DNA of 64,000 bases, from contig OZ024740.1 in the NCBI GenBank assembly GCA_964016885.1, positions 386,446,001 through 386,510,000 on the forward strand, read 5' to 3'. Below, one piece after another: positions 1-57,550 of the stretch. The translations under genes and the position numbers were made by a program. The number at the start of each line of letters is the position of its first letter. The stretch's first letter is position 1. The notes beneath the pieces are model-generated. The model saw only the letters and a list, made by a program, of their open reading frames with translations. It was not told where the DNA came from and searched no databases. Source of the DNA: Eledone cirrhosa. Taxonomy: Eukaryota.

Positions 1-131
1 GGAGGGCCGTTGCTCTATGCTATAGGGCAAACAATTATTATAATAATACTGAACTGTAACACTCAGCTTCAATTATATGAGCTCCTTCTAAAGTCAACAG
101 TGGACATGATCTTGTATCAGTACTGACGGTA

Positions 132-137
<6 letters not shown>

Positions 138-200
<63 letters not shown>

Positions 201-896: not shown

Positions 897-3800
897 ATGG
901 CTGGTGCGGTCATGTGCGAGAACCCCCCGACTGTCTTCAAGCAATCGCACTACAGGAAAAGGAACAACAAAAATATGAAGACGTCGCATCTCAGAGTTGC
1001 AACACTTAATGTTGGCACTCTCACAGGTAGATCTGGTGAGATAGTGGAGATGCTGGAGAGAAGGCACGTGGATGTGTGTTGCGTGCAAGAGGTGAGATGG
1101 AGAGGTGCCTCTGTGAGACTAATCGCAGGTAAACATCTTAGTTATAAGCTTTTCTGGGTTAGGGGGAGTAGGCATTTTCCAGGCTGAGAGATGGATCAAT
1201 AAAACAATAGAGGTAGTTCGAGTTAATAATCGAATAATTAAGCTTAGATTAGTTGTAGGCAGGAGACTACTGACAATCATATCTGCCTATGCTCCCCAAG
1301 CAGGCCTAGGTAAAGAAGAGAGAGACTGCTTTTATGAGCAACTTTTACAAACAGTCGCAATGACAGAGGACGGAGACATCGTTATGCTAGCAAGGGACTT
1401 CAATGGTCATGTTGGACAGCTCCAGGATGGTTACACTGGGGTACATGGTGGGCATGGTTATGGCTCAAGAAATGAAGAAGGAATGAGACTTCTTGAATTT
1501 TGTGATGCAAGTACATTGACCATTTGCAACACTAACTTCCAGAAACCTGCCAACCTCCTAATAACCTACAAATCAGGCGAGCACATAAGCCAGATTGACT
1601 TCTTACTAGTTAGGCAGTGGGACAGGCAGATGGTGTCAAATACCAAGGCATACCCCGGGGAAGAATGTACCCCACAGCATAGGTTAGTCGTTAGTGATAT
1701 CTCAGTAAGCAAGAGACGGAATGAGACATACAGGGAAGTGTGAAGAAGAAAGGTCTGGAAGCTAAAAGACCTTTCATTAAATACAAATTTAGGAAAGCCC
1801 TTCAAGATGTGTATGACGAAAAAGAAGACGTTTTAGAGTCGTATGACATAGATGATAACTGGAATTTCTTACGTGACAACTCACTGCAGGCTACTGATGA
1901 AACTTGTGGCTGGAGCAGAACTCTAACCAGAGAGAGAGTGACCTGGTGGTGGAACAGCACAGTAGATAGGGCCATTAGAGACAAAAGACTAGCATGGAAG
2001 TCTTGGGAAAAAGGTGGGAGTAGAGAAGGATATACAGCCGCTAAGAGAGAAGCTAGATGTCAGGTGTACTTAGCACGCAGGGAGGCTGAGAGTAGGAGGT
2101 TTGCCAATGTTCTGCGATGGGAAGATCAGAGGCGTGCAGTGTTCCACATTGCAAGGCAGTGTGTCAATGCAAATCAGGATGTTGTTGGAGATAAATGTGT
2201 CCGGAATGATGCCGGTGTACTTAGTGTCATGAATGATCACAAAAGGGAGCCCTGGAAATGTCATTATGAGAGACTGATGAATGTGGAGAACGAATGGAAG
2301 AGAGAGAAATTATCCTCAGTAGATCCAACAGAGGGACCAGCTATTGAGATTGACGAATATAGGGTCCAAGAGGCGATTAAAGAAATGAAAAATGGTAAGG
2401 CTGCCGGACCGTCGAGGATAGTTGCTGAGATGCTGAAGGCACCAGGGGCCGTAGGCACTAAACTGGTTGCACGCATCATCAATCAGGCTATATATGGCGG
2501 TGTCATACCCAAAGACTGGTGCAGCAGTATTCTCATAAATTGCTACAAAGGTAAAGGGGTTGATCTGGAGAGGAGCAATTATAGAGGTATAAAACTGATG
2601 GATCAGGTTATGAAAATTTGAGAAAGGATATTAGCACAACTAATCAGACGAAGGGTCAAACTAGATGAGATGCAGTTTGGTTTTGTGCCTGGGAAAAGTA
2701 CAACAGATGTCCTCTTCTTGGTGAGACAATTACAAGAGAGGTTCTTAGAGAAGAATAAGCCACTCTACTTAGCTTTTGTTGACCTAGAGAACGCCTTTGA
2801 TAGGGTACCCCGATCTGTCATCTGGAGGTCCCTAAGGAAACTAGGTGTTGAGGAATGGCTTGTGAGGACAGTGCAAACTTTGTACAGAGGTGCTGTCAGT
2901 AAAGTCAGGGTAGGAATGGAGTTTAGTGAGGAATTCCAGATACAAGTAGGAGTACATCAAGGTTCGGTCCTCAGCCCACTCTTGTTCATTATAGTCCTCC
3001 AAGCCATAACAGAGGAGTTTAAGACTGGCTGTCCATGGGAACTTCTCTATGCTGACGATCTGGTTCTTATAGCAGAATCATTAGAGGAGCTAGAGAATAA
3101 ATTCTGGCTATGGAAACAGCAGTTGGAAGCAAGAGGACTGAGAGTGAACCTAGCTAAGACAAAAATGTTGATGAGTAGAAAAGAGGACAAAACTTTGCTT
3201 CCGTCAGGGAAATGGCCATGTTCGATATGCAGAAAAGGAACTGGCATAAATTCTATAAAATGCACACAATGCAGATCCTGGGTACACAAGATATGTAGTG
3301 GGATAGCAGGAAAACTAACAGGTAGGGAGAAATACGTATGCAGTAGATGTACAGGGAAATTAGACAGTAGAAGTCGCATTGATAGACGCATTTTTCAATT
3401 GCAGCGGGTGCTATAGAAGTGGTGGATAGCTTCCGCTACCTAGGAGATCACATTAGCATGGGAGGGGGGTGTTCCGAGGCCATAGTATCTAGAATAAGGA
3501 TGGGTTGGAAGAAGTTTAGGGAGCTGCTTCCTCTGCTGACGAAGAAGGGTTTCTCCCTGCGTACGAAAGGCCAGTTATATGGTGCATGTGTGAGGAGAGC
3601 GATGCTGCATGCAAGTGAGACTTGGGCAGCAACTGCAGAGGATATGCGACGGCTGGAGAGAAATGATGTGCAATGTCAATGTGCGTGAACGACCCAGCAT
3701 GGATGTGTTGAGAGAGAAACTGTGTCTGAGAGGGATAGAATGTAATGTGCGAGAGAGGAGACTGCGGTCGTATGGACATGTGATGCGCATGGAGGATGAC

Positions 3801-15609: not shown

Positions 15610-17259
15610 GAGCATGGTCCTTGCTGCTGATACGGTCATACCCTCGGCTACTGGGGTCCAACAGGGCGACCCTTTGGGACCCCTCCTGTTTGCCCTTGGT
15701 ATTGACCACACCGCCCGGAGTATCACGCCCCCCCCTCAATGTTTGGTATCTGGATGATGCTACGTTGGGTGGGCCCGTACGGACGGTCTGCCATGACCTT
15801 CAATCGGTGGTTCCTGCCCTTGCGGGAATCAGCCTCCAAGTCAACTCGGCCAAGTCGGACGTGGTGAATGTCAGCCTCGATGCTGCGAGCTTTGCAGCCT
15901 CCGTCTTGGACGTGCGGTCCATTCTCCGCCAGGTTCAGGTAACCTCAAAGAGGATGTCCTCATCCTCGGGTCACTGATCCAACCGCTGGCCATCCGCTCC
16001 ACCATCAGGTCCAGGCTTCAACAGCTCCAGACTCTCACAAGCCGACTGGGCTTGATTGACGGCCACCCAGCTCTCTTCCTGCTGAGGAACTGCTTCGCCA
16101 TGCCGAAGCTCCTCCATACACTCCACAGCGCTCCGTGCTACACCCAGACATCTCTCCTCGCTGACCTCGATACTTGTATCCGAGCAGCAGCCAAGGAGAT
16201 ATGCAACGTCAAGTTTGACGACATAGGGTGGCAACAGGTCACTTTACCTGTCAGGTATGGCGGCCTTGGCCTCCAGTCCCCAATCTCACTAGCTTTGCCG
16301 GCGTATCTTTCGTTGGTAACCTCGTGCCGCGTCCCCGTCAGCAGGGTTCTTCAAAACACAGAGAACGTGAGGCTGCCTGTGAGACATGGGACCGGCTGGG
16401 ACTTAGCCTAGTAGACATCCCTCCTCCTTCTCCCCCTGTTGACGTCAAGTCCTCCCAACGCACTTGGGATGCCATCCAGTGCAGCCTGGTCTCAGACAGG
16501 CTCACGCGCCAGCTCGACCAGCACCGCCTTGCTTGTTTTTGTGCGGCCTCCAAACCCCACAGTGGTGCCTAGCTCTATGCCCTGCCCTCCTTCTCCACAA
16601 GCACACAGCTAGACAACCATAGCCTGCGCATTGGCGTTTCCCTGAGGCTCGGCCTCCGGATCTGCCAGCCACACCAATGTCGCTGCGGTTACACCGTGGA
16701 CTCCTTTGGCCTTCACCCGCTTTCCTGTCACCACAGTGCCAGCCGCATTCCACGCCATGCTGCCCTCAACGAGGTCATTAAGCATGGCTTGGACGCTGCA
16801 GGCTTCCCTTCCCAGCTCGAGCCGGTGGGGCTGGATCGAGGGGACGGCAAAAGGCTAGATGGCATGACCATCTTCCTGTTCCGCGGTGGCAAACCCCTCG
16901 TTTGGGATGCCACTTGCACCAACACTTTCTGCAGCCGCAACCTGGTGCAGTCTGCGACTGACCCGAGTTCTGCTGCACGTCGGCCTGAGGGGGCCAAACT
17001 CCTCAAATACCGGTCGCTCTCCAACAGGTTTGCTGTCGTACCCCTGGCAGTGGAGACTTCTGGTGTTCTCGGCCCCAGGGCTACCTCCTTACTCACCACC
17101 ATAGGCGCTGAGCTGGCCAGCCACAGGTGTGAACCCCACGAGTTGGAGTGGCTCTTCCAGCACGTCTACCTTGCCGTCCTCCGGGGAAACGCCTTCTCCA
17201 TTCTGTCCACTGGGGCTATGGGTGGGCCCCATCGCATACCGTTGTATTTGATGGAATAG
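15610..17259 (+). mobile_element. CRE-clade non-LTR retrotransposon relic (RT C-half, CCHC, RLE), 5'-truncated and frameshifted
   Basis: GVQQGDP, WYLDD, LPVRYGGLGL, CRCG..VDSFGLHPLSC, RHAALNE, KRLDG..WDATC and PLAVETSG motifs. GC-rich relative to its flanks. Confidence 0.85.
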
Positions 17260-18082: not shown

Positions 18083-19803
18083 CATCATCATCACCGTTTT
18101 ACGTCCGTTATTCCACACTAGCATGGGTTAGATGGGTTGTCCTGTTGTGGGCAGTGTCTGGTCAGCTGACCATGCCTTGCTCATACAGGAACTGATTTGG
18201 CTTGATTTCTACAGCTGGATGCCCTTCCTAATACCAACCTCATTTACAGTGAGTGGTGGGTGCTTTTTCGTGGCGCCTACACGTCCACTTTACAGTGTGG
18301 GCTGGGTGCTTTTTTGCCGTGGCACCTCCACGACCACTTTGCAGTGGGAGGGTGTGGGGGCATATTGTCTATATGCTTCAGCTTGAACCCATAGGCGGTC
18401 AGGTACTCTGTATTACTGCGTGACGCCAGAGGTCACAGTTGTGTGTCATCACCTTGGAGAGGTGTAATTGGGTAAGGTCTGCTTTTATCACCTCATCCAG
18501 GTCATCTTGGGTCTCCCCACTCTGCTGTTTACATCGACTTCTAGTGCTCTGCACCTTTTTATGCAGCTGTCATCCTTCATACACATCACATGTCCATACC
18601 AACGCAACCGCCTCTCCTGCACACAGCATTTGATTCCTCTTATGCTCAGTATCTCTCTCAATTCATTTATGCTTTGTCGGTCGCATATATTACTATTACA
18701 CATCCATCGGAGTATGCAGGCTTCGTTTCTCTCTAATCTACGTAAGTCTTCCACCTTCAGCGCGCAGGTCTCACTACCATGTAACATTGCTGTTCGGATA
18801 CACGCATCATACAGTCTGCCTTTCATTTTGAGGGAGAAGCCTTTTGCAGTTAGCAGTGGCAGTAGTTCCCTGAACTTCTTCCATCCCGTTCTTACCCTAG
18901 TTATTGTACTTTCTGAACACCCACCTCCGCTGCTAATTCGGTCACCTAGGTAGCAGAAGCTGTCTACTGTCTCTACAGAGCCCTCCCAGAGATTGGTGGT
19001 ACTTGTTTCCTGTGGCTGTTTGCTGCTTGCTGTCCCAGTACAGCTGCTGCATGTGAAGCCTACATTCTTAATTAAGCTTCCTGAGATCCCGCTACATCTC
19101 TTGTGTACCCATTGTTTGCATTTGTGGCAGAGAATGGAGTTCCTACCTACACCTTTCCTACATACTGAGCAAGGCCATTTCCCTGAGGGGATCTGGGTTC
19201 TGTTTTCTTGTCTACTTACAAGGACCCTAGTCTTTGTCATGTTGACTTTGAGACCCTTTCTTTCTAGTCCCTGCTTCCAAGTTTGGAATTTATTCTCTAG
19301 TTCTACCATAGATTCAGCTATAAGTGCGAGGTCATCAGTATACAGGAGTTCCCATGGGCATCTAGTCTTAAACTCCTCCGTTATTGCCTGCAGGACTATG
19401 ATGAACAGGAGAGGGCTAAGGACAGAGCCCTAGTGGACCCCAACCTGTACGCTAAATTCCTCGCTATACTCATTGCTAATCCTAACTTTGCTGACTGCTC
19501 CCCTATACATGGCTTGTACAACTTTCACAAGCCATTCATCTACTCCTAGTTTTCTAAGAGCCCACCAGATTACAGCACGTGGAACTCTGTCAAAGGCTTT
19601 CTCGAGATCGACGAATGCCAGGTAGAGCGGCTTACTTTTAGCTAGGTACTTTTCCTGTAACTGCCTGACAAGGAAGAGGGCATCAGTGGTGCCTCTTCCT
19701 GGTACAAACCCAAATTGCATCTCATCTAGTTTCACCCGGTCCCTAATCAACTGTGCTATAAGTCTTTCTGTTACTTTCATGACCTGGTCCATCAGCTTTA
19801 TAC
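18083..19803 (-). mobile_element. RTE family 2 LINE, 5'-truncated, with long SINE-like 3' UTR
   Basis: RT motifs (QFGF, DLEKAFD, LLYTDD) and a PHD-like finger. Very similar to 36205-37918. Confidence 0.95.
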
Positions 19804-19875: not shown

Positions 19876-20272
19876 TCATCATTTCATTTTACGTCCACTT
19901 TTCCCTGCTTGCAAGGGTGGGACGGGAACTGATGCTGGCTTGATTTCTACAGCTGGTTGAGATAGGTGAACTGAGGCTGAGACAGTGGACTGTGGTTGAG
20001 ACAGTGGACTGTGGCTTGATTTCTACAGCTGGATGCCCTTCCTAACACCAACCTCATTTACAGTGAGTGCTGGGTGCTTTTTTGCCGTGGCACCTCCACG
20101 ACCACTTTGCAGTGGAATGATAGGGACCCCAGTCCCTATCATCTCATTTCTACAGCTGAGTAAACTGGAGCAATGTGAAATAAAGTGTCTTGCTCAAGGA
20201 AACAACACATCACCCGGTCTGAGAATTGAACTCACAACCTTTCGATTGCAAGGCCAATGCTCTAACCACTAA
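19874..20272 (-). mobile_element. tRNA-derived SINE with RTE family 1 tail
   Basis: Same family as 14225-14556. Confidence 0.85.
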
Positions 20273-20290
20273 GCAATGCTCTAACCACTA

Positions 20291-20531
20291 AGGCACATGG
20301 CTTAGTGGTTAGAGCATTGGCCTTGCAATCGAAAGGTTGTGAGCTCAATTCTCAGACCGGGTGATGTGTTGTTTCCTTGAGCAAGACACTTTATTTCACA
20401 TTGCTCCAGTTTACTCAGCTGTAGAAATGAGATGATAGGGACTGGGGTCCGTATCATTCCACTGTAAAGTGGTCGTGGAGGTGCCACAGCCAAAAGAGCA
20501 CCCAGCACTCACTGTAAAGGAGGTTGGTGTT
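20291..20531 (+). mobile_element. tRNA-derived SINE, head-to-head with the preceding copy
   Basis: Reverse-complement match to 20043-20272. Confidence 0.85.
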
Positions 20532-20567: not shown

Positions 20568-21240
20568 TAATTATAAATGTGAGAGAAAAACAGACAAAGA
20601 ATTACCTTTTTTTTTTCAAAGTCCCTACTGCAGTTTCATCAACCGTTTTGCAGCATTGGTGCACCAGAGAAGTGCACCAATGCTGTGAGGATGTCGAATC
20701 TTCAAGGAGACCCCTCATATTGTGGACTGTATCCTGGCCTGACTGTAAGAAAGTGAATATTTCTCTGGAGGGAGAAATTGTCATGTGGTATAGGTCACAG
20801 AAGGGAGGCAAGAAATAGCAGCCAGCACCCACCTAATTAACTCTACTAAAAGGGAGTTTAGACAATAGAGTAATAAGATATATTAAAATATATAAATATA
20901 TGTGTGTGTGATGTCCTGCTTTGACCAGTTTTACTTCAATGACCGAATTAGTTAATAATAATCAGAAGAATTAAAATAATCATTTAATCAGAGCTATTTA
21001 TCAAATTATAAATGTGAGGAAAAATGGACAACAAATTACCTATTTTTTCTTCTGTGACCTATACCACATGATGATTTCTCCTTCCAGAGAAATATTCACT
21101 TTCTAACAGTCAGGTCAGGAAACAGTCCACAATATGAGGGGTCTCCTTGAAGATTCAACAGCCTCACAGTATTGGTGCACTTAAGGACTTTGAAAAAAAA
21201 AGGTATTTCTTTGTCTGTTCTTTCCTCGCATTTATAATTA
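20568..21240. repeat. Inverted-repeat cassette (20568-20812 / 21048-21240) containing a hammerhead-like motif
   Basis: The arms are imperfect reverse complements. The right arm lacks the ribozyme's 3' half. Flanked by (TA)n. Confidence 0.8.
20621..20711 (-). ncRNA. Hammerhead-like motif with variant core
   Basis: Minus strand reads gtctc-CTTGAAGA-ttcgac..[14-bp perfect hairpin]..gttgat-GAAA-ctgcag-TA-gggac. Confidence 0.55.
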
Positions 21241-21420: not shown

Positions 21421-21470
<50 letters not shown>

Positions 21471-21514
21471 AGAAAAAATTTGCGAAATGGAAATGCGGGT
21501 ATATAGAATTTATT

Positions 21515-21631
21515 AGGTAACAATTGTTTCTATAGTGTATGAGTTACCTATACCTCGCTATTTGAATAATACACAAATATTATCAAAAACCGAAAGTACA
21601 CTGTAAGCCAACACACCATGTCATCAGACCT
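21515..21631 (-). ncRNA. Hammerhead ribozyme in the downstream pseudo-LTR
   Basis: Minus strand reads aggt-CTGATGA-catggtgtgt...atacactata-GAAA-caattg-TT-acct. Long helix II, palindromic helix III, GUU triplet. Confidence 0.75.
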
Positions 21632-22041
21632 TTGTATTAGAATGATATGAAAATATTTTATACACTAGATAAAAGATAAAGAAGGAGGTAGGAAGAGAAG
21701 GGGAAGAGGGAAGTGAGTAAGGTGGAGGGAATCTTAGGGTTTAAGACTGTCAGACTAGTAGAGATTGTGAAGAGAGAATGTTTTGGCAGCAGTTAGCTTA
21801 ATGAGGCATGCTAAGGTTGGCTGGGAAGTAGATACTTCTAGTGGTGTTGTTCGGACAAAATTTAGTTAGAGGGGTCAAAGTGGTACAATGTCACAGACAA
21901 GTTATTAGGGCTATTATAGTAGCAGGTTATTTCTAAAGGGGTCCAGAAAAACAGTGTTTAGTACTATTATTATAGAAAGTCATATCTAGTGTATAAATAT
22001 ATAAGACAGAAATTTGCAAACGTTGGCGCAAAAAGGTAACA

Positions 22042-24318
22042 TTATATGCATTTAAAAAAAGAAAAAGTCGTTTTCAAACGATGGTTACAGTATAGAGAAC
22101 GTTCAATTTTGCTGTTCAAAAGTTTGTTTACCGACGTTAAAATGCAGTATATCTCTAAATTGCATAACTTGCAGAATCGATGATTTTGCTGATATGCAGG
22201 CGCAGCTGCAATAATTTGCCAATCAAGGGAGAACGCTTGATTGTTCCTCCGAAGCTGCCAGGCTTTATCGGCGAGGGTTGTTATGGAGCGCATTTTCTCG
22301 TGCCTGATCGAAGATCGATGTTGGTATAGGCGAGCCTTGAAAGAAGTTGCGGTACATCCGACGTAATACCATTTGTTGGTCCCGGAATTTATTGTACACC
22401 GGTAGACAATATTGCGTGCTAGGCACTGGTTATTCAGTGGGCACGTACCTGGTTTGGTGCAGTTACAACTATTTTTATGTTTTGCAGTAGAATCCTGGAT
22501 AGTTTGGTGGGGTTGCGTGTTAGTGCGTTGCATGTTGCTATGCTGGTGCGCTGAGTCATTAGGGATGTACTTATTCAGTATTGCTGAGTTGAGTTTTCTA
22601 ATTAGTTGTTCTATGTTAGGTGCAGTGGAGTATGAGAGTCTAATGGTGCGCGAGTTAAAGATTTTATAGTATTTATGTGAAGTTGTAAAGTGTTTATTGA
22701 TTAGTGTATAGAATTGTGAGATAATCTTAGTGCTAATAGAAGAATTGTACACGGGGTTATACCATATGTACTCTCTACGTCTGACTCTATTTGCTGGTTT
22801 GCACCTGTTAGTATGCCTATTGATGTGTGTGTGTGGTGCAATACTAGTTCGACTTAGATGTGTTTTATTCATAGTACTTATGTGGTTATCGTCTAGATAT
22901 TCAATTTTCTCGCAGTAACCAGCTTTTCTAAGTGCGTCATTATAATATTCAGCATGCTCGTTGAAGGTCTGCAAATTAGACGACAGTCGGGAGATCCTTA
23001 TGGATATATTTTTAGGGATAGATTTAATAATGGAATGAGGATGGTTCGATTTTACATTAACGTACTTAAGATTTTCATTAAGTTTGTGAAATGGCTCTAT
23101 ATTACCGTTATTAAGGTTGAAGGTAACATCCAAGAAGTTGACCACCTTAAGATTGTGTTCAAAGGTAATATTAAGCCCTGGTTCTAAGAAAAGTTTCCTA
23201 ATGTTTTTACGTCGCCTTTCTAGGTTTTGTTTGTTCATATTCTTGACTAATAGAAGTGTATCGTCGCAGTATATTCCGCCGTGGAGGTCCGTAAATTCGC
23301 TCTGGAGTCTATGGGCTATATAGATCCCAACCAAATCCGTGACCTCCGCCGAATCATTAGAACCCATCGTAATGTCGAATTCCGAGGGTCTATCCCTGCG
23401 GACCCAATAACTATTTTCAAAGTGCACTACTGTGCGTCTAGCTTCAAGTATAATATTAATTTCCTCGTTTGTGAGGTCCGAGTTAGTCTTAGCGAAAGAG
23501 AGGGCCTTATGCAGGGTTTCGGGTGAAATAGAGGAATAGTATTCATCTATATCGAATTGAATAAAAGAAGATTTGTTTTTGTCCCTAATGTTATTGAACC
23601 ATCTTATTGCCTGATGAGTATTACCCCATAATTTAATATCTACCTTAGCCTTAACTTGGGGGATAATACGATCTAATATGTACTTACTAATCCTACCTAT
23701 ATCGGACTTTGAAGGACATATTAATCTAATTTTAGGGTTAGTATCGAAGTTATCCTTATGGTCCTTCAGATTAAAAGTCGGTGTAGCTGGGGATAGGGGT
23801 ACCGTTCTGTCGTCAATTTTCAGTTTCCTAACAATATCACATGCTGCGTTATTAATGTTGGTTAGTGTAGTTGCGTTTGTTTTTTTGTATTTCCTATGTA
23901 ATTCCTTACGTATAAAATTGTTATATGTTTCTACATCCAGGGTGTATAGATTCGAAGTTTTGTCTGCCTTTATGATAATTCCTTTGGTATTCCTTAGGTT
24001 GTTGAGTAGAGTTTTAATATCTCGTTGCAGTTCGTTTTTCCTTCCGTCTGTAAATTTGATTCCGGTTATCATTTTCATTAAGTCCTGTTCGAAAGAATCC
24101 AAAAGAGGGTTAGAGGGTGGGTTTTTGTAGGATTTGAAACCAAACTTCTCGTTGTTGGTGTCCGAAGTTTGTGTAATCCTTTTCCGATCGAAGTGGAAGG
24201 CATTCCATCTAATCCGCCGAATAAATTCGTTGGTCCTTTGTATCATACCAAGAATGTAATCCTTTTTACCCTGAATGGGTATGTTTTTTAAGGACATACC
24301 ACAATGATGTTTTTCCAT
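22042..24318 (-). CDS. Penelope-like reverse transcriptase / GIY-YIG endonuclease (758 aa)
   Basis: N-terminal SLKNIP, KADKT, RLICP, FIQFDIDEYYSSI, ITMGS, IYCDD, VNFLDVTF, SNHP, a CNC..CPL..C linker, then IVYRC...YYVG...FKARLYQH. Confidence 0.92.
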   Translation of the reverse strand: MEKHHCGMSLKNIPIQGKKDYILGMIQRTNEFIRRIRWNAFHFDRKRITQTSDTNNEKFGFKSYKNPPSNPLLDSFEQDLMKMITGIKFTDGRKNELQRDIKTLLNNLRNTKGIIIKADKTSNLYTLDVETYNNFIRKELHRKYKKTNATTLTNINNAACDIVRKLKIDDRTVPLSPATPTFNLKDHKDNFDTNPKIRLICPSKSDIGRISKYILDRIIPQVKAKVDIKLWGNTHQAIRWFNNIRDKNKSSFIQFDIDEYYSSISPETLHKALSFAKTNSDLTNEEINIILEARRTVVHFENSYWVRRDRPSEFDITMGSNDSAEVTDLVGIYIAHRLQSEFTDLHGGIYCDDTLLLVKNMNKQNLERRRKNIRKLFLEPGLNITFEHNLKVVNFLDVTFNLNNGNIEPFHKLNENLKYVNVKSNHPHSIIKSIPKNISIRISRLSSNLQTFNEHAEYYNDALRKAGYCEKIEYLDDNHISTMNKTHLSRTSIAPHTHINRHTNRCKPANRVRRREYIWYNPVYNSSISTKIISQFYTLINKHFTTSHKYYKIFNSRTIRLSYSTAPNIEQLIRKLNSAILNKYIPNDSAHQHSNMQRTNTQPHQTIQDSTAKHKNSCNCTKPGTCPLNNQCLARNIVYRCTINSGTNKWYYVGCTATSFKARLYQHRSSIRHEKMRSITTLADKAWQLRRNNQAFSLDWQIIAAAPAYQQNHRFCKLCNLEIYCILTSVNKLLNSKIERSLYCNHRLKTTFSFFKCI

Positions 24319-24525
24319 TTCAAAGACGCGGGTTGATAGGTTGCTCGACTGTAAAGGAGTGTGAAGAATTAGATAATTTGTATTCCAATGTTACTAAGTA
24401 GTTGCATTGGATGGAGTCAACTGACGTCAGAGTTTGCTCAACGTATAATAAAGTGTGTTTTAAAATCCGGAGAAAATATGGAGAAAAAATTTACGAAATG
24501 GAAATGCGGGTATATAGAATTTATT

Positions 24526-24642
24526 AGGTAACAATTGTTTCTATAGTGTATGAGTTACCTATACCTCGCTATTTGAATAATACACAAATATTATCAAAAA
24601 CCGAAAGTACACTGTAAGCCAACACACCATGTCATCAGACCT
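24526..24642 (-). ncRNA. Hammerhead ribozyme in the upstream pseudo-LTR
   Basis: Same motif as 21515-21631, offset by 3011 bp. Confidence 0.75.
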
Positions 24643-25395
24643 TTGTATTAGAATGATATGAAAATATTTTATACACTAGATAAAAGATAAAGAAGGAGGT
24701 AGGAAGAGAAGGGGAAGAGGGAAGTGAGTAAGGTGGAGGGAGTCTTAGGGTTTAAGACTGTCAGACTAGTAGAGATTGTGAAGCGAGAATGTTTTGGCAG
24801 CAGTTAGCTTAATGAGGCATGCTAAGGTTGGCTGGGAAGTAGATACTTCTAGTGGTGTTGTTCGGACAAAATTTAGTTAGAGGGGTCAAAGTGGTACAAT
24901 GTCACAGACAAGTTATTAGGGCTATTATAGTAGCAGGTTATTTCTAAAGGGGTCCAGAAAAACAGTGTTTAGTACTATTATTATAGAAAGTCATATCTAG
25001 TGTATAAACATATAAGACAGAAATTTGCAAACGTTGGTGCAATAAGGTAACATTATATGCATTTAAAAAAAGAAAAAGTCGTTTTCAAACGATGGTTACA
25101 GTATAGAGAACGTTCAATTTTGCTGTTCAAAAGTTTGTTTACCGACGTTAAAATGCAGTATATCTCTAAATTGCATAACTTGCAGAATCGATGATTTTGC
25201 TAATATGCAGGCGCAGCTGCAATAATTTGCCAATCAAGGGAGAACGCTTGATTGTTCCTCCGAAGCTGCCAGGCTTTATCGGCGAGGGTTGTTACGGAGC
25301 GCATTTTCTCGTGCCTGATCGAAGATCGATGTTGGTATAGGCGAGCCTTGAAAGAAGTTGCGGTACATCCGACGTAATACCATTTGTTGGTCCCG

Positions 25396-25449
<54 letters not shown>

Positions 25450-25721
25450 TATATATGTTTTTTTCCTGGTCCTCACCAATCTCGAACTTAAGTTCAGATT
25501 TATGTTGACTTTAAAATTTTCTCTCTCTTCCCTTTTTTCCCATCCCAATAACTTCCTTTAGTTATTGATGCACTGGGGTAAGATATATTGTCTTTAATGT
25601 GTTGAAATATCCATGACTCCCAGCAGACAACTGATGAAGGAAAATTATCTCCCGTTCTTGCTTTCCTCTTATTTATAAGTACACCTTATCCAGCAACTCC
25701 ACAGCCCTGTACATATATGTA

Positions 25722-26487
25722 TCTCAAAATGAAAGGCAGACTGTATGATGCGTGTATACGAACAGCAATGTTAGATGGTAGTGAGACCTGGGCGCTGTCT
25801 GTAACAGACTTGCGCAGATTAGAAAGAAACGAAGCTTGCATGCTCCGATGGATGTGTAATAGTAATATACGCGAACGGCAAAGCATAAACAAATTGAGAG
25901 AGAGACTGAGCATAAGAGGAATCAAATGGTGTGTGCAGGAGAGGAGGTTGCATTGGTATGGACATGTGATGCGTAAGAAGGATGACAGCTGCATAAAAAG
26001 GTGCAGAGCACTAGAAGTCAATGGAAGCCGCGGAGTGGGGAGACCCAAGATGACCTGGGATGAGGTGATAAAAGCTGACCTTACCCAATTGCACCTCTCA
26101 AGGGTGATGACACACGACCGTGACCTCTGGCGTCACGCAGTAATACAGAAGACGCGACTTCCCACGGGAACAAGCCAAAGCCGAAGCATATAGACAATAA
26201 ACCCCCACCCCCTCCCTCTGCAAAGTGGTCGTGGAGGTGCCACGGCAAAAAAGCACCCAGCCCACACTGTAAAGTGGACATGTAGGCGCCACGGAAAAAA
26301 AGCACCCAGCACTCACTGTAAATGAGGTTGGTGTTAGGAAGGGCATCCAGCTGTAGAAATCAAGCCAGAATCAGTACCTGTATGAGCAAGACAAGGTCAG
26401 CCGACTGGACACTGCCCACAACAGGACAACCCGTCTAACCTATGCTAGCGTGGAAGAACTCACGTAATATGGTGATGATGATGATGA
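25722..26487 (+). mobile_element. RTE family 2 3' fragment with SINE-like 3' UTR
   Basis: KMKGRLYDACIRTAML...GHVMRK...GRPKMTW. Same 3' UTR as 37627-37918. Confidence 0.92.
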
Positions 26488-34892: not shown

Positions 34893-37800
34893 AATAATAT
34901 CAGCTTACGCACCCCAATCGGGGCTGCCAGACGAACTTAAGGATAGGTTTTACGAGTCCCTAATACACACTACTGCTCTAACAGACGACAAGGACTTCCT
35001 AATCATCGCAGGAGATTTTAACGGACACGTAGGTAAACACTGCGACGGCTTCAATAGAGTACATGGAGGCCATGGAGTTGGCACAAGGAATGAGGAAGGA
35101 TTCAGACTTCTAGAATTCTGCGACGCCAATGACATGTCGATATGTAACACAAACTTTAAAAAACCCGACAACCACCTGATCACCTATAGATCAGGGGAGC
35201 ACTCTAGTCAGTTAGATTTTATCCTCATCAGAGGACGTGACAGATGGACGGTCGTAAACACAAAAGCCTTCCCTAGTGAGGAATGTACATCCCAACATAG
35301 CTTAGTTGTCAGCGACCTCACGGTCAGAACTAGACGAACCCGGAAACAGAGGCCAACCTGGAGAAGAAAGATCTGGAAGCTGAAAGTCCCCTCAACCAGT
35401 AACATATTTAAAGATATTTTACTCAACGCCTACGACAGTAAAGAAGAACAGATAGAGACATTTAACGTAGAAGAGAACTGGGAGTTCCTAAAAAATAATT
35501 TACTAGAGGCGACGGATGAGGTCTGAGGCTGGAGTAAGACCTCAAGCAGGAGGAGAGTGACTTGGTGGTGGAACAATAAGGTAGATGAAGCAGTTAAGGC
35601 CAAGAGACAGGCATGGAAAGAATGGAAGAACGGGGGGAGCAGGGTACATTACATAGAGACCAAGAGGGAAGCTAGGCGACAAGTATACTTAGCTAGGAGG
35701 GAAGCAGAGGATAGAAAACTCAAGCATGTTTTACAACGTGGGGACCAGAAACAGGAGGTATTCAAGATTGCGAGGCAGTGTGTCAGAGATAGTTGTGATG
35801 TCATTGGAGAGAAGTGTATCTGGAATGATAAAGGTGAGCTTGCCCTCACAAGTGCTGAGAAGAAAGATGCATGGAAGAGTCATTATGATAGATTACTAAA
35901 CGAGGAGAATGCATGGGAAGAAGAGACCCTACCCCAAGTAGACCCTATAGAGGGACCAGCAGTACAAGTCAGCAGCAGCGTAGTAAGTAAGGCAATCAAA
36001 GATATGAAGATGGGGAAGGCAACCGGTCCATCGGGTATAGCTACCGAGATGCTGAAGGCATCTGGGTCTGTAGGTCACACTATAACCACACGTATCATTA
36101 ACCAGGTAATACTAGAAGGGGCCATACCAAAAGATTGGTGCAGTAGCATCATTGTCAACTGCTACAAAGGTAAAGGCGATGCACTAGATAGAGGAAATTA
36201 TAGAGGTATAAAGTTGATGGACCAGGTCATGAAAGTAACAGAAAGAGTTATAGCACAGCTGATTAGGGATCGGGTGAAAATAGACGAGATGCAATTTGGG
36301 TTTGTACCAGGAAGAGGCACCACTGATGCCCTCTTCCTTGTGAGGCAATTACAGGAAAAGTACCTAGCTAAAAGTAAGCCACTCTACTTGGCATTTGTCG
36401 ACCTTGAGAAAGCCTTTGACAGAGTTCCACGTGTTGTAATCTGGTGGGCTCTTAGAAAACTAGGAGTAGATGAATGGCTTGTGAAAGCGGTACAAGCCAT
36501 GTATAGGGGAGCAGTCAGCAAAGTTAGGATTAGCAATGAGTATAGCGAGGAATTTAGCATACAGGTTGGGGTCCACCAGGGCTCTGTTCTTAGCCCTCTC
36601 CTGTTCATCATAGTCCTGCAGGCAATAACGGAGGAGTTTAAGACCGGATGCCCATGGGAACTCCTGTATGCTGATGACCTCGCACTCATAGCTGAATCTA
36701 TGGTAGAACTAGAGAATAAATTCCAAACCTGGAAGCAGGGACTAGAAAGAAAGGGTCTCAAAGTCAACATGACAAAGACTAAGGTCCTTGTAAGTAGGCG
36801 AGAAAACAGAACCCAGATCCCCTCAGGGAAATGGCCTTGCTCAGTATGTAGGAAAGGTGTAGGTAGGAACTCCATTCTCTGCCCCAAATGCAAACAATGG
36901 GTACACAAGTGATGTAGCAATTTAATAATAATTAAGAATGTAGGATTCACATGCAGCAGCTGTGCTGAAACAGCAAGCAGCAAACAGCCACAGGAAACAA
37001 GTACCACCAATCTCTGGGAGGGCTCTGTAGAAACAGTAGACAGCTTCTGCTACCTAGGTGACCGAATTACCAACGGAGGTGGGTGTTCAGAAAGTACAAT
37101 AACTAGGGTAAGAACGGGATGGAAGAAGTTTAGGGAACTACTACCACTGCTAGCTGCAAAAGGCTTCTCCCTCAGAATAAAAGGCAGACTGTATGATGCG
37201 TGTATCTGAACAGCGATGTTGCATGGTAGTGAGACCTGGGCGCTGAAGGTGGAAGACTTACGTAGATTAGAGAGAAACGAAGCCTGCATGCTCCGATGGA
37301 TGTGTAACAGTAATATACGTGAACGACAAAGCATAAATGAATTGAGAGAGAGACTGAGCATAAGAGAAATCAAATGCTGTGTGCAGGAGAGGCGGTTGTG
37401 CTGGTATGGACATGTGATGCGTATGAAGGATGACAGCTGCATAAAAAGGTGCAGAGCACTAGAAATTGATGGAAACCGCGGAGTGGGGAGACCCAAGATG
37501 ACCTGGGATAAGGTGATAAAAGCCGACCTTACCCAATTACACCTCTCAAAGACAATGACACATGACCGAGACTTCTGGCGTCACGCAGTAATACAGAGTA
37601 CCCGACCTCCCATGGGTACATGCTGAAGCATATAAACAATATGCCCCCACACCCCTCACCGCAAGGTGGTCGTGGAGGTGCCACGGCAAAAAAGCACCCA
37701 GCCCACACTGTAAAGTGGACGTGTAGGCGCCACGAAAAAGCACCCAGCACTCACTGTAAATGAGGTTGGTGTTAGGAAGGGCATCCAGCTGTAGAAATCA

Positions 37801-54732: not shown

Positions 54733-55288
54733 TGGTGGCTGCCAACTCATTTTCGAGTACGGCCACTACTTTATACCCATGTAGGAGAACTCCTACCGAT
54801 GCGCTGAACGAGTGTGACTTTTTAGTCCAGCCAGCGACCTGAAAACTCTGGTACAAACACTACACCTATGACAATTATTGACACATAGTGCTGGGCCCAT
54901 GGTACCATGTGACGACAAGTGCAGAGAGATCTCCAGATATAAAGCAATGCCTGTGCCGTGAAGCTTTTATAGTGAGCAAAGGCACTGCACAAAGCCAGTC
55001 CCACTCTCTTAACCAAGATGATATTTACCAAAAAGAAGAACAATTCAACATCATTGGATACCATCAGAGTTGCAGGTGTTATATCAGAGTTTTCCTTCTC
55101 CTAGAATTCTACCTTGACAAAGGCTAAGGGGTCATCTCTCCCGGTGATTTTGGATGGCCATTGACTCTTAAGAGCTCCTTTGCCCTTTGACAGGTTTTGT
55201 TTTTAGTCCTGCAGGATGTCCAAAGTCACCCTCCTCACCAAGAAAACTTGGTGGGGTTGCCAGTTTAGTCACCAACGACCCGACCATG
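54733..55288 (-). mobile_element. Dispersed copy of the bipartite RTE-derived element
   Basis: Reverse complement of the 29-31 kb unit, with (TATG)n-like sequence on both sides. Intact remnant HRCSVCTRVFRSLAGLKSHTRSAHR* at 54793-54870. Confidence 0.9.
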
Positions 55289-55359
55289 AGACATACATAC
55301 ATACATACATACATACATACATACATACATACATACATACATACATACATACATACATA

Positions 55360-57550
55360 CAGAATTTCACTTTCTATCGGCAAGATCTCATACGGCTGTT
55401 TACAGAAACCATTAAAGGCACACAAGAACTGTCCAGATGGTTATCAACTGCCACTACTCTCCTCATTCCCCAAAATAGCCAAACCACCCTTGCTAAAAAT
55501 TACTGCCCAATAGCCTGCCAAAACATCATGTATAAATTATATACTGGGTGCCTTAACCTGTTCTTACAGGATCACTGTGCTACCAACAACATCATAACAC
55601 CTGAGCAAGCTGGTGGAAAGAAGGAGGTGTGAGGTTGCATAGATCACCTACTAACTAACAAAATGATTCAGGAAAAAACAACAAAGAATCACAGAAACAT
55701 GACTGTCATGTGGCTGGACTATCAAAAAGCATTTGATAGTGTACCTCATGGATGGATTATTAAGGCTTTACAGTTAGCCAAAGTCCCACAACCATTGGTA
55801 GCTGCTGTTGAACGCCTGACCAAGAACTGGTACACCAATTTGATCCTTAGAGGTGAGAAGGAGCAAGTTAAGACTGATAAGATACATTACCAGAAGGGCA
55901 TCTTTCAGGGTGATAGCTTGTCAGTGCTACTCTTCGTTCTCTCACTGAATCCACTATCTTACCTACTCAGGAAACAAGGTGGACAAAGAAGTGGGTCCAG
56001 AAGTATCTCTCATCTTTTCTTTGTTGATGACCTGAAGTTGTATGGGCCAAATACCAATGACATCAAGAAACAATTGGACCTCATTACACAATTTTCAACT
56101 GACATCAAAATGAAATTTGGTGAGTCCAAGTGTGCATATTTGGCAGTAAAACGTGGAAGAGCTGTGCCCTCCTCTAGATATGATGGACCCATAAATAAGG
56201 AGAGAACTAGAACTGAATACCTCAGAAGAGTAAAGAAAATATGGTCATCAGAACTGTCAGCGTACAACAAATACATTGCCCACAATACTTATGCTGTGCC
56301 AATTCTAACGCCAACATTTGGCCTGCTGAACTGGTCATTGCAAGAACTAAGTGAGATGGATGTTAGAACTCGCAAACTTCTCAGTGTTACTGGGAACTTT
56401 AACATCAATGGTGATGTGGATAGGCTATACTTCTCACGCAAGGAAGGTGGCCGGGGTCTAAAATCAATATTAACAACATATGAGACCCGGATAGTAACAC
56501 TGAAGCAACACCTTCAACAGAGGGAAAAGGTTGGCAACCATCTTGCCTAGGTTTATGTGCATGAAAAAAAAATATCATTAGAATAGCGACTGATCTGGAG
56601 GAGAGATATGGAATAAAGCCTGATATAAATCTCTCACCCAGAGCAATCGGAAGATCCTATTCAATGTTCAAACAAGATAAAAAAAATTGACCAATTTACA
56701 GAAAAAGTTGTGCATGGATACTTGAGACGTAAAACACAGACCATAGAGGGAATAAACCACTCAAAAAGCCTGGCATGGAGTTCCGACAAGTTTATGACAT
56801 CACACCTTGAGGGATATCTCTATGCAATACAGGAACAAGAACTCCCTACCAAATATCTGCTGCACAAAAGAGGAGGGCCAGCAGCTGACAATAAATGTAG
56901 GCTATGTAAAACAAAGATCGAGGATGTAAGCCACATTGTTGCCAGCTGCGAAAGAATGTGATCTCGCTACTACCTCTCCATGAGACACGATGGGATAGCT
57001 AGAACCATCTGGAACGCACTTCGGAAAACAAAATTAACAATAAACGAGGAAGAATATATTGAGACAGATGGCACTAAGGAATACTGGTGGAACCTGAAAA
57101 TAAAAACTGCCACCAAATTAAAGCACAACCGGCCTGATATTGTTGTTTGGGACCACACATTGAAAACGTGTTCTGTTGTGGAGATCAGCTGCCCACTTGA
57201 TGTAAACATTGTCAGAAAAATACAGGAGAAGGAGGACATCTACGGACCATTGATGAGGAGTTTACAAATCCAGTATCCAAGATACACCTTTAGCTTCATA
57301 CCCATCATTATTGGAGCTACGGGTTATATACCAACCCGCTTGGACCAAAGTATGACTGAACTTGGATTTGCGGACAAAAAGCGCAGCTCCCTAATTCATA
57401 GTCTACAAATGGCTGCGATAGCTGGCACCTTCAAAATTTGCAAAACATTCTTGCGATTCAAGGGATGACAATTTCTTTTCTTTTACAACCTTGCCACCAG
57501 GAAGGTGGCCGGTCAAAATAAATATACTCGAAATTAAGAGAAAGAGATAA
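55360..57550 (+). mobile_element. R4/Dong-like RLE non-LTR retrotransposon, 5'-truncated, with stops and frameshifts
   Basis: WLDYQKAFDSVPH, GIFQGDSLS, HLFFVDDLKLY, GGRGL, AIQEQ, CRLC..HIVASC, RHD, RPDIV and VEISCP motifs. Confidence 0.88.

Follow-up and report, generated by a model that had tools for sequence, protein, structure and literature searches.

A predicted long-armed hammerhead and the RNA template of Hydra-clade Penelope-like elements in Eledone cirrhosa

How does a Penelope-like element (PLE) restore its pseudo-long terminal repeats (pLTRs), and what is the role of the hammerhead ribozyme that lies within them? Both matters are stated as open questions in two papers (PMC2377424; PMC8557442), the first of which calls pLTR regeneration unexplained. 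We analysed a window of 64,000 nucleotides from Eledone cirrhosa (GenBank assembly GCA_964016885.1, contig OZ024740.1, positions 386,446,001 to 386,510,000 of the forward strand), in which the minus strand of 21465..25403 carries a PLE that almost certainly belongs to the Hydra clade, judging from its motifs. The element is a member of a family that we call A. The same genome holds four sister families, whose proteins are 71% (B), 63% (C), 54% (D) and 58% (E) identical to that of A. Variants shared within single insertions, together with the junctions of these insertions, suggest that the template was likely one RNA continuous across the predicted hammerhead cut. The insertion in the window is organised as follows.

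21465..25403, minus strand: whole insertion, family A Hydra-clade PLE, a partial tandem of a 5'-truncated upstream unit, one full unit and a 54-nt 3' end
25400..25446, no strand: (TA)n target, 5' flank
24476..25399, minus strand: 5' pLTR, which begins within the last ~350 nt of the open reading frame (ORF) and holds the 3' untranslated region (UTR) and hammerhead 1
24526..24642, minus strand: hammerhead 1, predicted, type I, with a 4-bp stem I, a CUGAUGA core at 24638-24632, a palindromic minimal stem III and a GUU cut at 24530/24529
24542..24631, minus strand: rod-like stem II arm of 90 nt; five families conserve its internal-loop motif
24319..24529, minus strand: leader of 211 nt, containing both 3'-end sites of the family (inferred starts of the reverse transcriptase, RT) at +49..54 (24481-24476) and +160..166 (about 24367)
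22042..24318, minus strand: open ORF of 758 aa, RT plus C-terminal GIY-YIG
21465..22388, minus strand: 3' pLTR, with 8 mismatches to the 5' copy
21515..21631, minus strand: hammerhead 2, predicted, with a predicted cut at 21519/21518
21465..21518, minus strand: 54-nt stretch beyond the downstream cut, a short-class 3' end whose terminal ATAT merges with the target repeat
21425..21464, no strand: (TA)n target, 3' flank

The direct repeats are 924 bp long, are offset by exactly 3011 nt and differ at positions 21482, 21731, 21773, 21998, 22027, 22032, 22191 and 22284. An earlier, sequence-only reading of the window had described repeats of ~920 bp with about eight differences, an uninterrupted 758-aa ORF, GUU cut sites at 24530/24529 and 21519/21518 and a leader of ~210 nt. 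All of this holds: the frame is open from 24318 to 22042 on the minus strand and the motif occurs in both repeats at those coordinates. Its view of a young Penelope-like insertion also stands. The pLTR divergence of 0.9% falls inside the range of family A (0-4.8%). A target-site duplication, if there is one, is hidden because the target is itself a (TA)n repeat.

We compared the variants found within and between insertions. In family A, 25 insertion-private variants occur on all repeats of their insertion among 22,058 multi-copy sites; the comparison between insertions gave 122 variants in 5.85 million aligned sites. Tandem pairs of the other families have 10 common private variants in 17,272 nt for B (8 in 1.49 million between insertions), 24 in 10,278 nt for C (18 in 1.33 million) and 10 in 8,339 nt for D (12 in 0.28 million). 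Such variants come as near to the cut as -15 and +3, and in all four families A-D some are common to tandem and inverted arms. The two pLTRs of the window copy have one private and one rare variant in common. In family A, sampling favours copies that have a long body or the 24-mer immediately following the cut; of the 354 exact matches of this 24-mer in the genome, about one in three is included. Families B, C and D were sampled at 20, 20 and 10 near-full-length loci. We excluded the duplicated arrays at C4 204.0-204.7 Mb (19 of 282 segments) from the analysis of pLTR divergence, from the tally of ends and from the shared-variant counts of family A. In this region (204.1-204.6 Mb, loci L008-L016 and L064-L068) two- and one-unit arrays of family A are clustered and duplicated, some units having a 14-nt deletion in the 3' UTR and a common stop codon; the cluster looks like a segmental duplication. 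Taken together, the counts indicate that the repeats of each insertion likely come from a single RNA template.

The ends of the insertions are also regular. Each family has two fixed 3' ends after the cut, at +54 and +163 (A), +62 and +168 (B), +60 and +202 (C) and +61 and +237 (D), i.e. spaced by 106-176 nt. Family A has 89 short and 29 long ends (n = 118). By analogy with the Anolis element PAc (PMC11167929), we read these positions as probable RT start sites. Of the inverted insertions, whose two arms lie back to back, 53 of 53 have the long end on one arm and the short end on the other (19 in A after removal of duplicates, 12 in B, 18 in C and 4 in D). A one-sided tail was known qualitatively, at 30-40 bp (PMC3846280; PMC8557442, legend of Fig. 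2). The pLTRs extend far into the ORF. Arms can be longer than one unit, reaching two full units at most, and those with a long tail often exceed one unit. A 5' junction at +1 would be the footprint of cleavage, and none of the 259 crossings of the cut in families A-D has one. Five family A junctions fall at -4 to -10, within the AT palindrome, and retain bases upstream of the cut. Tandem junctions carry neither (TA)n nor lesions, and the sequence runs seamlessly across the cut. A 5-nt deletion starts at the cut in one family A locus (L076); no other lesion was found there among 138 family A anchors, and none in B-D. Hence, the private variants shared within insertions and the lack of junctions at the cut suggest that the template is likely one RNA continuous across this site.

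The predicted ribozyme has the features of a type I hammerhead, namely the CUGANGA core, GAAA, an NUH cut site and stems I-III, with a 4-bp stem I, a 9-bp proximal stem II and a palindromic stem III in family A. Rfam searches miss it, at gathering as well as at E-value thresholds, because the stem II arm is 90 nt long. This arm has a folding z-score of -5.2 in family A (300 dinucleotide shuffles), while the whole 156-nt motif is unremarkable (-1.4). A rod-like arm of 75-90 nt is present in 5 of 5 families (z from -2.1 to -5.2, 300 shuffles each), which form one clade with a support of 100 in a tree of 66 relatives. All five have a common internal-loop motif in the arm, and stems II and III covary; an automatic alignment of the arms, with one mis-cut row, was used for viewing only. 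The long arm may mark a protein-binding site. One of its strands can pair with the 8 nt that follow the cut in families A and B, and in A this alternative pairing covaries. Among relatives from metagenomes, 56 of 78 have a sense-strand hammerhead candidate, the clear ones with arms of 10-25 nt, and 8 of 78 have two hammerheads around the ORF. Seven candidates have longer arms, but six of these lie inside the ORF and the locus of the seventh has a short motif of its own. The bracketing of the ORF by two hammerheads is a generic layout, unlike the long arm.

Core, GAAA and stem III are preserved while the helices covary, across families whose proteins are 54-71% identical, and we therefore read the ribozyme as being under selection. 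Family E has a compensatory U3-A8 pair in the core, a variant described in PMC4209133, and family D has U4C. Among the 40 commonest recurrent variants of family A (152 copies), the core is touched only at N7. The core agrees with the Hydra type in File S2 of PMC8557442, where 10 of 26 Hydra rows have a GUU cut. These patterns make it probable, as far as sequence can tell, that the ribozyme is active in vivo.

Some further observations concern the surroundings of the hammerhead. Families A, B and C have, 15-45 nt upstream of the hammerhead, a long tract of pyrimidines that ends in AG (24745-24676 on the minus strand of the window, and at the same place in L151 and L176). It resembles a splice acceptor, like that of the Penelope pLTR intron; family D has no obvious tract of this kind, and we saw no genomic copy that had been spliced. 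The flanks of loci L061-L210 contain many other hammerhead families, several of them with a long stem I and an AT-palindromic stem III. In a more distant Hydra-like family of the same genome (L075, L114, L163 and L168), the hammerhead is short and ordinary, its palindromic stem III and GUU site being the same as those described above. We also considered a non-circular permutation of the hammerhead that would rescue stem I of family B, and did not adopt it: it is absent in C and violates the block order required in PMC10085705.

What form did the continuous RNA take? We put the chance that the productive template is a re-ligated circle at about even. A promoter in the pLTR would drive a more-than-unit transcript, which the two hammerheads would cut to unit length. 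For this, the palindromic stem III would probably depend on a partner or on the protein, and such stems are reported to require a dimer (PMC4209133). The 5'-OH and cyclic-phosphate ends would be ligated into a circle. An RT-endonuclease, probably a dimer, would nick both strands of the (TA)n target and would prime one cDNA at +54 and, in many cases, another at +163. Copying beyond one full turn would restore a pLTR of any length, and the two arms would be joined back to back. A scheme of cleavage, ligation and more-than-unit copying was put forward in 2014 (PMC4209133) and repeated in PMC6765202. A circle would account for pLTRs of any length, for arms beyond one unit and for selection on a ribozyme that never leaves its ends in DNA.

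Several observations weigh against this proposal. In vitro cleavage by metazoan PLE hammerheads is poor (PMC4209133), and the family A ribozyme fold lies about 3 kcal/mol above the minimum-energy fold. In family A, 204 of the 232 insertion-private variants are on one repeat only, which we read as decay after insertion. Shared variants do not tell a circle apart from homology-driven strand transfer, from a tandem donor that was homogeneous beforehand or from gene conversion. In Anolis Poseidon, the one reconstituted PLE, mutation of the hammerhead left insertion normal, RNA that had not been processed served as the main substrate and RNA-seq ends at the cut were not found (PMC11167929). Two contig sets of unrecorded kind gave no joints and no piled ends when aligned, but such material cannot address ends or splicing. 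The template may have been an uncut linear transcript, terminally redundant or of several units, on which RT starts at +54 and +163 and from which the pLTR is rebuilt by transfer to the homologous repeat or by tandem read-through; the hammerhead would then just end or regulate transcripts, or be a folded protein-binding site. We lean against this explanation, but consider it a serious one. Besides the dispensability of cleavage in vitro in Anolis, it draws on family B, the youngest (mostly 99.3-100% identity) and most recently active, where stem I is broken to just 1 bp and the shared-variant pattern is the same, which argues that cleavage is not essential. It is also consistent with family C locus L176, where the 5' and 3' repeats differ at -21 in a pattern fitting linear inheritance, with the existence of multi-unit donors and with junctions that are all seamless and never begin at the cut. 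However, it demands either precise strand transfers by an RT that we take to be without RNase H, or long homogeneous donors that are steadily available. An uncut precursor does not by itself explain the compensatory change in the catalytic core of family E, nor is it easily reconciled with long-tailed arms that often exceed one unit.

Two other explanations fare worse. If the hammerheads freed a linear monomer, RT that had reached its 5' end could jump to the 3' end of this or a further monomer and so build tandems, and the ends would be exactly adjacent; the deletion of L076, which begins at the cut, would also fit. Yet the jump would be needed after 54 nt in every insertion and no crossing stops at +1, and apart from L076 the cut is free of lesions, so that this scenario, already disfavoured, is highly improbable. 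More generally, a linear monomer made by the cut would be a poor template or cannot serve as the productive one, because priming lies just 54 and 163 nt from its 5' end and run-off products are unseen. It is scarcely more probable that pLTRs are separate insertions beside an existing copy, as suggested in PMC2377424, later evened out by gene conversion or unequal crossover. The PLE endonuclease does cut its own pLTR (PMC11167929), and the array cluster on C4 attests to duplication. However, separate insertions should not leave tandem junctions free of (TA)n and lesions, nor place the same private variants on tandem and inverted arms in four families, and most differences between repeats remain unhomogenised singletons. 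A re-ligated circle thus remains our preferred reading. A fuller version of it is doubtful as a whole: the lineage would replicate through a 3-kb protein-coding circular RNA released by the new long-armed hammerhead, the loop of the arm would bind the RT-endonuclease and switch cleavage on, and an asymmetric dimer would always prime at the near and far sites of the same circle. If true, a circle and an asymmetric dimer would provide one mechanism for both the regeneration of pLTRs and the one-sided tail of PLEs.

At least four of the sister families in this genome are very young and differ naturally in their ribozyme (intact, weak stem I, U4C); an older family has U3-A8. The single-template repeats and the strict pairing of long and short ends make the choice between a circle and an uncut precursor directly testable. 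A literature search, which left most subscription papers (including Lunse et al. 2017) outside its scope, found no description of a long stem II arm in PLE hammerheads, of 106-176-nt tails, of the pairing of long and short ends or of the shared-variant test. On the Hydra clade, it retrieved nothing beyond the original description.

The window copy itself is an ordinary, young member of family A. We scored 40 of 4546 candidates from its own genome and took the best 30 (the window copy and 29 other loci), which are 95-100% identical. Ten of the other 29 encode an ORF of 760 aa, six of these ten within one duplicated cluster. The sequence-only reading had called the element near-intact and its ORF-containing unit exactly 3011 nt. 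The ORF is indeed open, and hammerheads bracket 3011 nt in this copy, but this length is private to it: a 6-nt deletion near 22515 removes sequence present in 28 of the 29 other copies, and the family unit is about 3017 nt. Moreover, five substitutions, all non-synonymous (K39N, N91D, R351C, L380P and V679I), are unseen in any other copy covering them. One of them, R351C, turns the RT active-site motif YRDD into YCDD (350-353); another makes RWN out of the N-terminal RWK (37-39), which is kept in 29 of 29 other copies. Distant relatives have Arg at position 351 in 35 of 36 cases, and Lys or Arg at position 39 in 36 of 36. Because of the five private changes, including that of the active site, and the deletion, the window copy is probably impaired.

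The same reading had assigned the element to Naiad, and this did not survive. According to PMC8557442, the GIY-YIG of Naiad is N-terminal and carries CCHH, two Cys of which lie inside it; Naiad also has DKA and IFD, and lacks a canonical hammerhead. Here RT spans 250-400 with GIY-YIG C-terminal of it (IVY..YVG, 637-654), CCHH is missing, with one Cys between the GIY-YIG motifs, the ORF has DKT (119) instead of DKA, and both repeats contain a hammerhead, which rules Naiad out. The Hydra clade is described by a C-terminal endonuclease without CCHH, RWK, DKT, a CxCx5C linker, CxxC, CxH, a hammerhead and (TA)n targets (PMC8557442). We found this set in family A: RWK in the family, and CNCTKPGTC (618-626), CKLC (716) and CNH (744) in the window ORF. 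The marks on which the Naiad assignment rested point elsewhere, as the linker belongs to the Hydra set and SLKNIP has a single occurrence in the supplement of PMC8557442, in Hydra-1_Crog. The N-terminus and RT are visibly colinear with the Hydra rows of this supplement. More broadly, RT and GIY-YIG in one ORF, partial-tandem pLTRs, inverted truncated partners and an optional tail are those of endonuclease-containing (EN+) PLEs. A Pfam scan of the ORF gave nothing significant and a search of PDB by sequence profile gave no match; telomerase RT (TERT) was the first match of the predicted structure of sister copy L002 (mean pLDDT 84.8). Homologues number 131 at E ≤ 1e-20 among 7858 candidates, 120 of them, among the matches listed, being 30-40% identical. 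The Hydra assignment is based on these motifs, together with motif tallies in 66 relatives; the tree of these relatives holds no named clade references.

The window also contains other repeats. Just 3' of the element are large inverted repeats at 20079-20495 and 20670-21182 (200-nt arms, 97% identical; 134-nt arms, 93%), possibly inverted PLE-type or MITE-like insertions. Broken non-LTR retrotransposon copies with RT ORFs, which we take to be RTE-like, lie at 1360-3416, 18488-19792, 25717-26193 and 35134-37626. Two further fragmented sets of retroelement-like ORFs (55216-57468 and 16100-17259) have what are presumably restriction-like endonuclease motifs.

How does family A compare with known systems? 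With Hydra-1_Obim, Hydra-1_Crog and Hydra-1_Ajap (PMC8557442) it shares a single ORF, the C-terminal GIY-YIG, RWK, DKT, YRDD, CxCx5C, CxxC, CxH and (TA)n targets, and with Hydra elements a type I hammerhead with an extra unpaired base on either side of stem II. However, the Hydra unit is 'generally <3 kb', against 3017-3505 nt in the families described here, and the stem II loops in File S2 measure 3-10 nt, against 75-90 nt for the arm. No row in the accessible part of this file matches the hammerhead sequence, i.e. the element is none of the families listed there. Naiad resembles the element in its preference for (TA)n, partial tandems, inverted 5'-truncated partners and a tail at one end. 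Anolis Poseidon PAc (Frangieh et al. 2024, PMC11167929) has an AT-rich target and two internal RT starts downstream of the cut that match genomic 3' ends. It belongs to a different clade, its tail is 30-40 nt instead of 106-176 nt and its hammerhead overlies the start codon, whereas here the hammerhead is entirely in the UTR. The minimal hammerheads of PLEs (PMC4209133) and of non-LTR retrozymes (bioRxiv 10.64898/2026.07.22.740005) share the type I fold, short stem I, palindromic minimal stem III and U3-A8, as well as the proposal of cleavage, ligation and more-than-unit reverse transcription. The families described here differ from both in having a long structured arm with a conserved internal loop, carried by an autonomous, protein-coding element.

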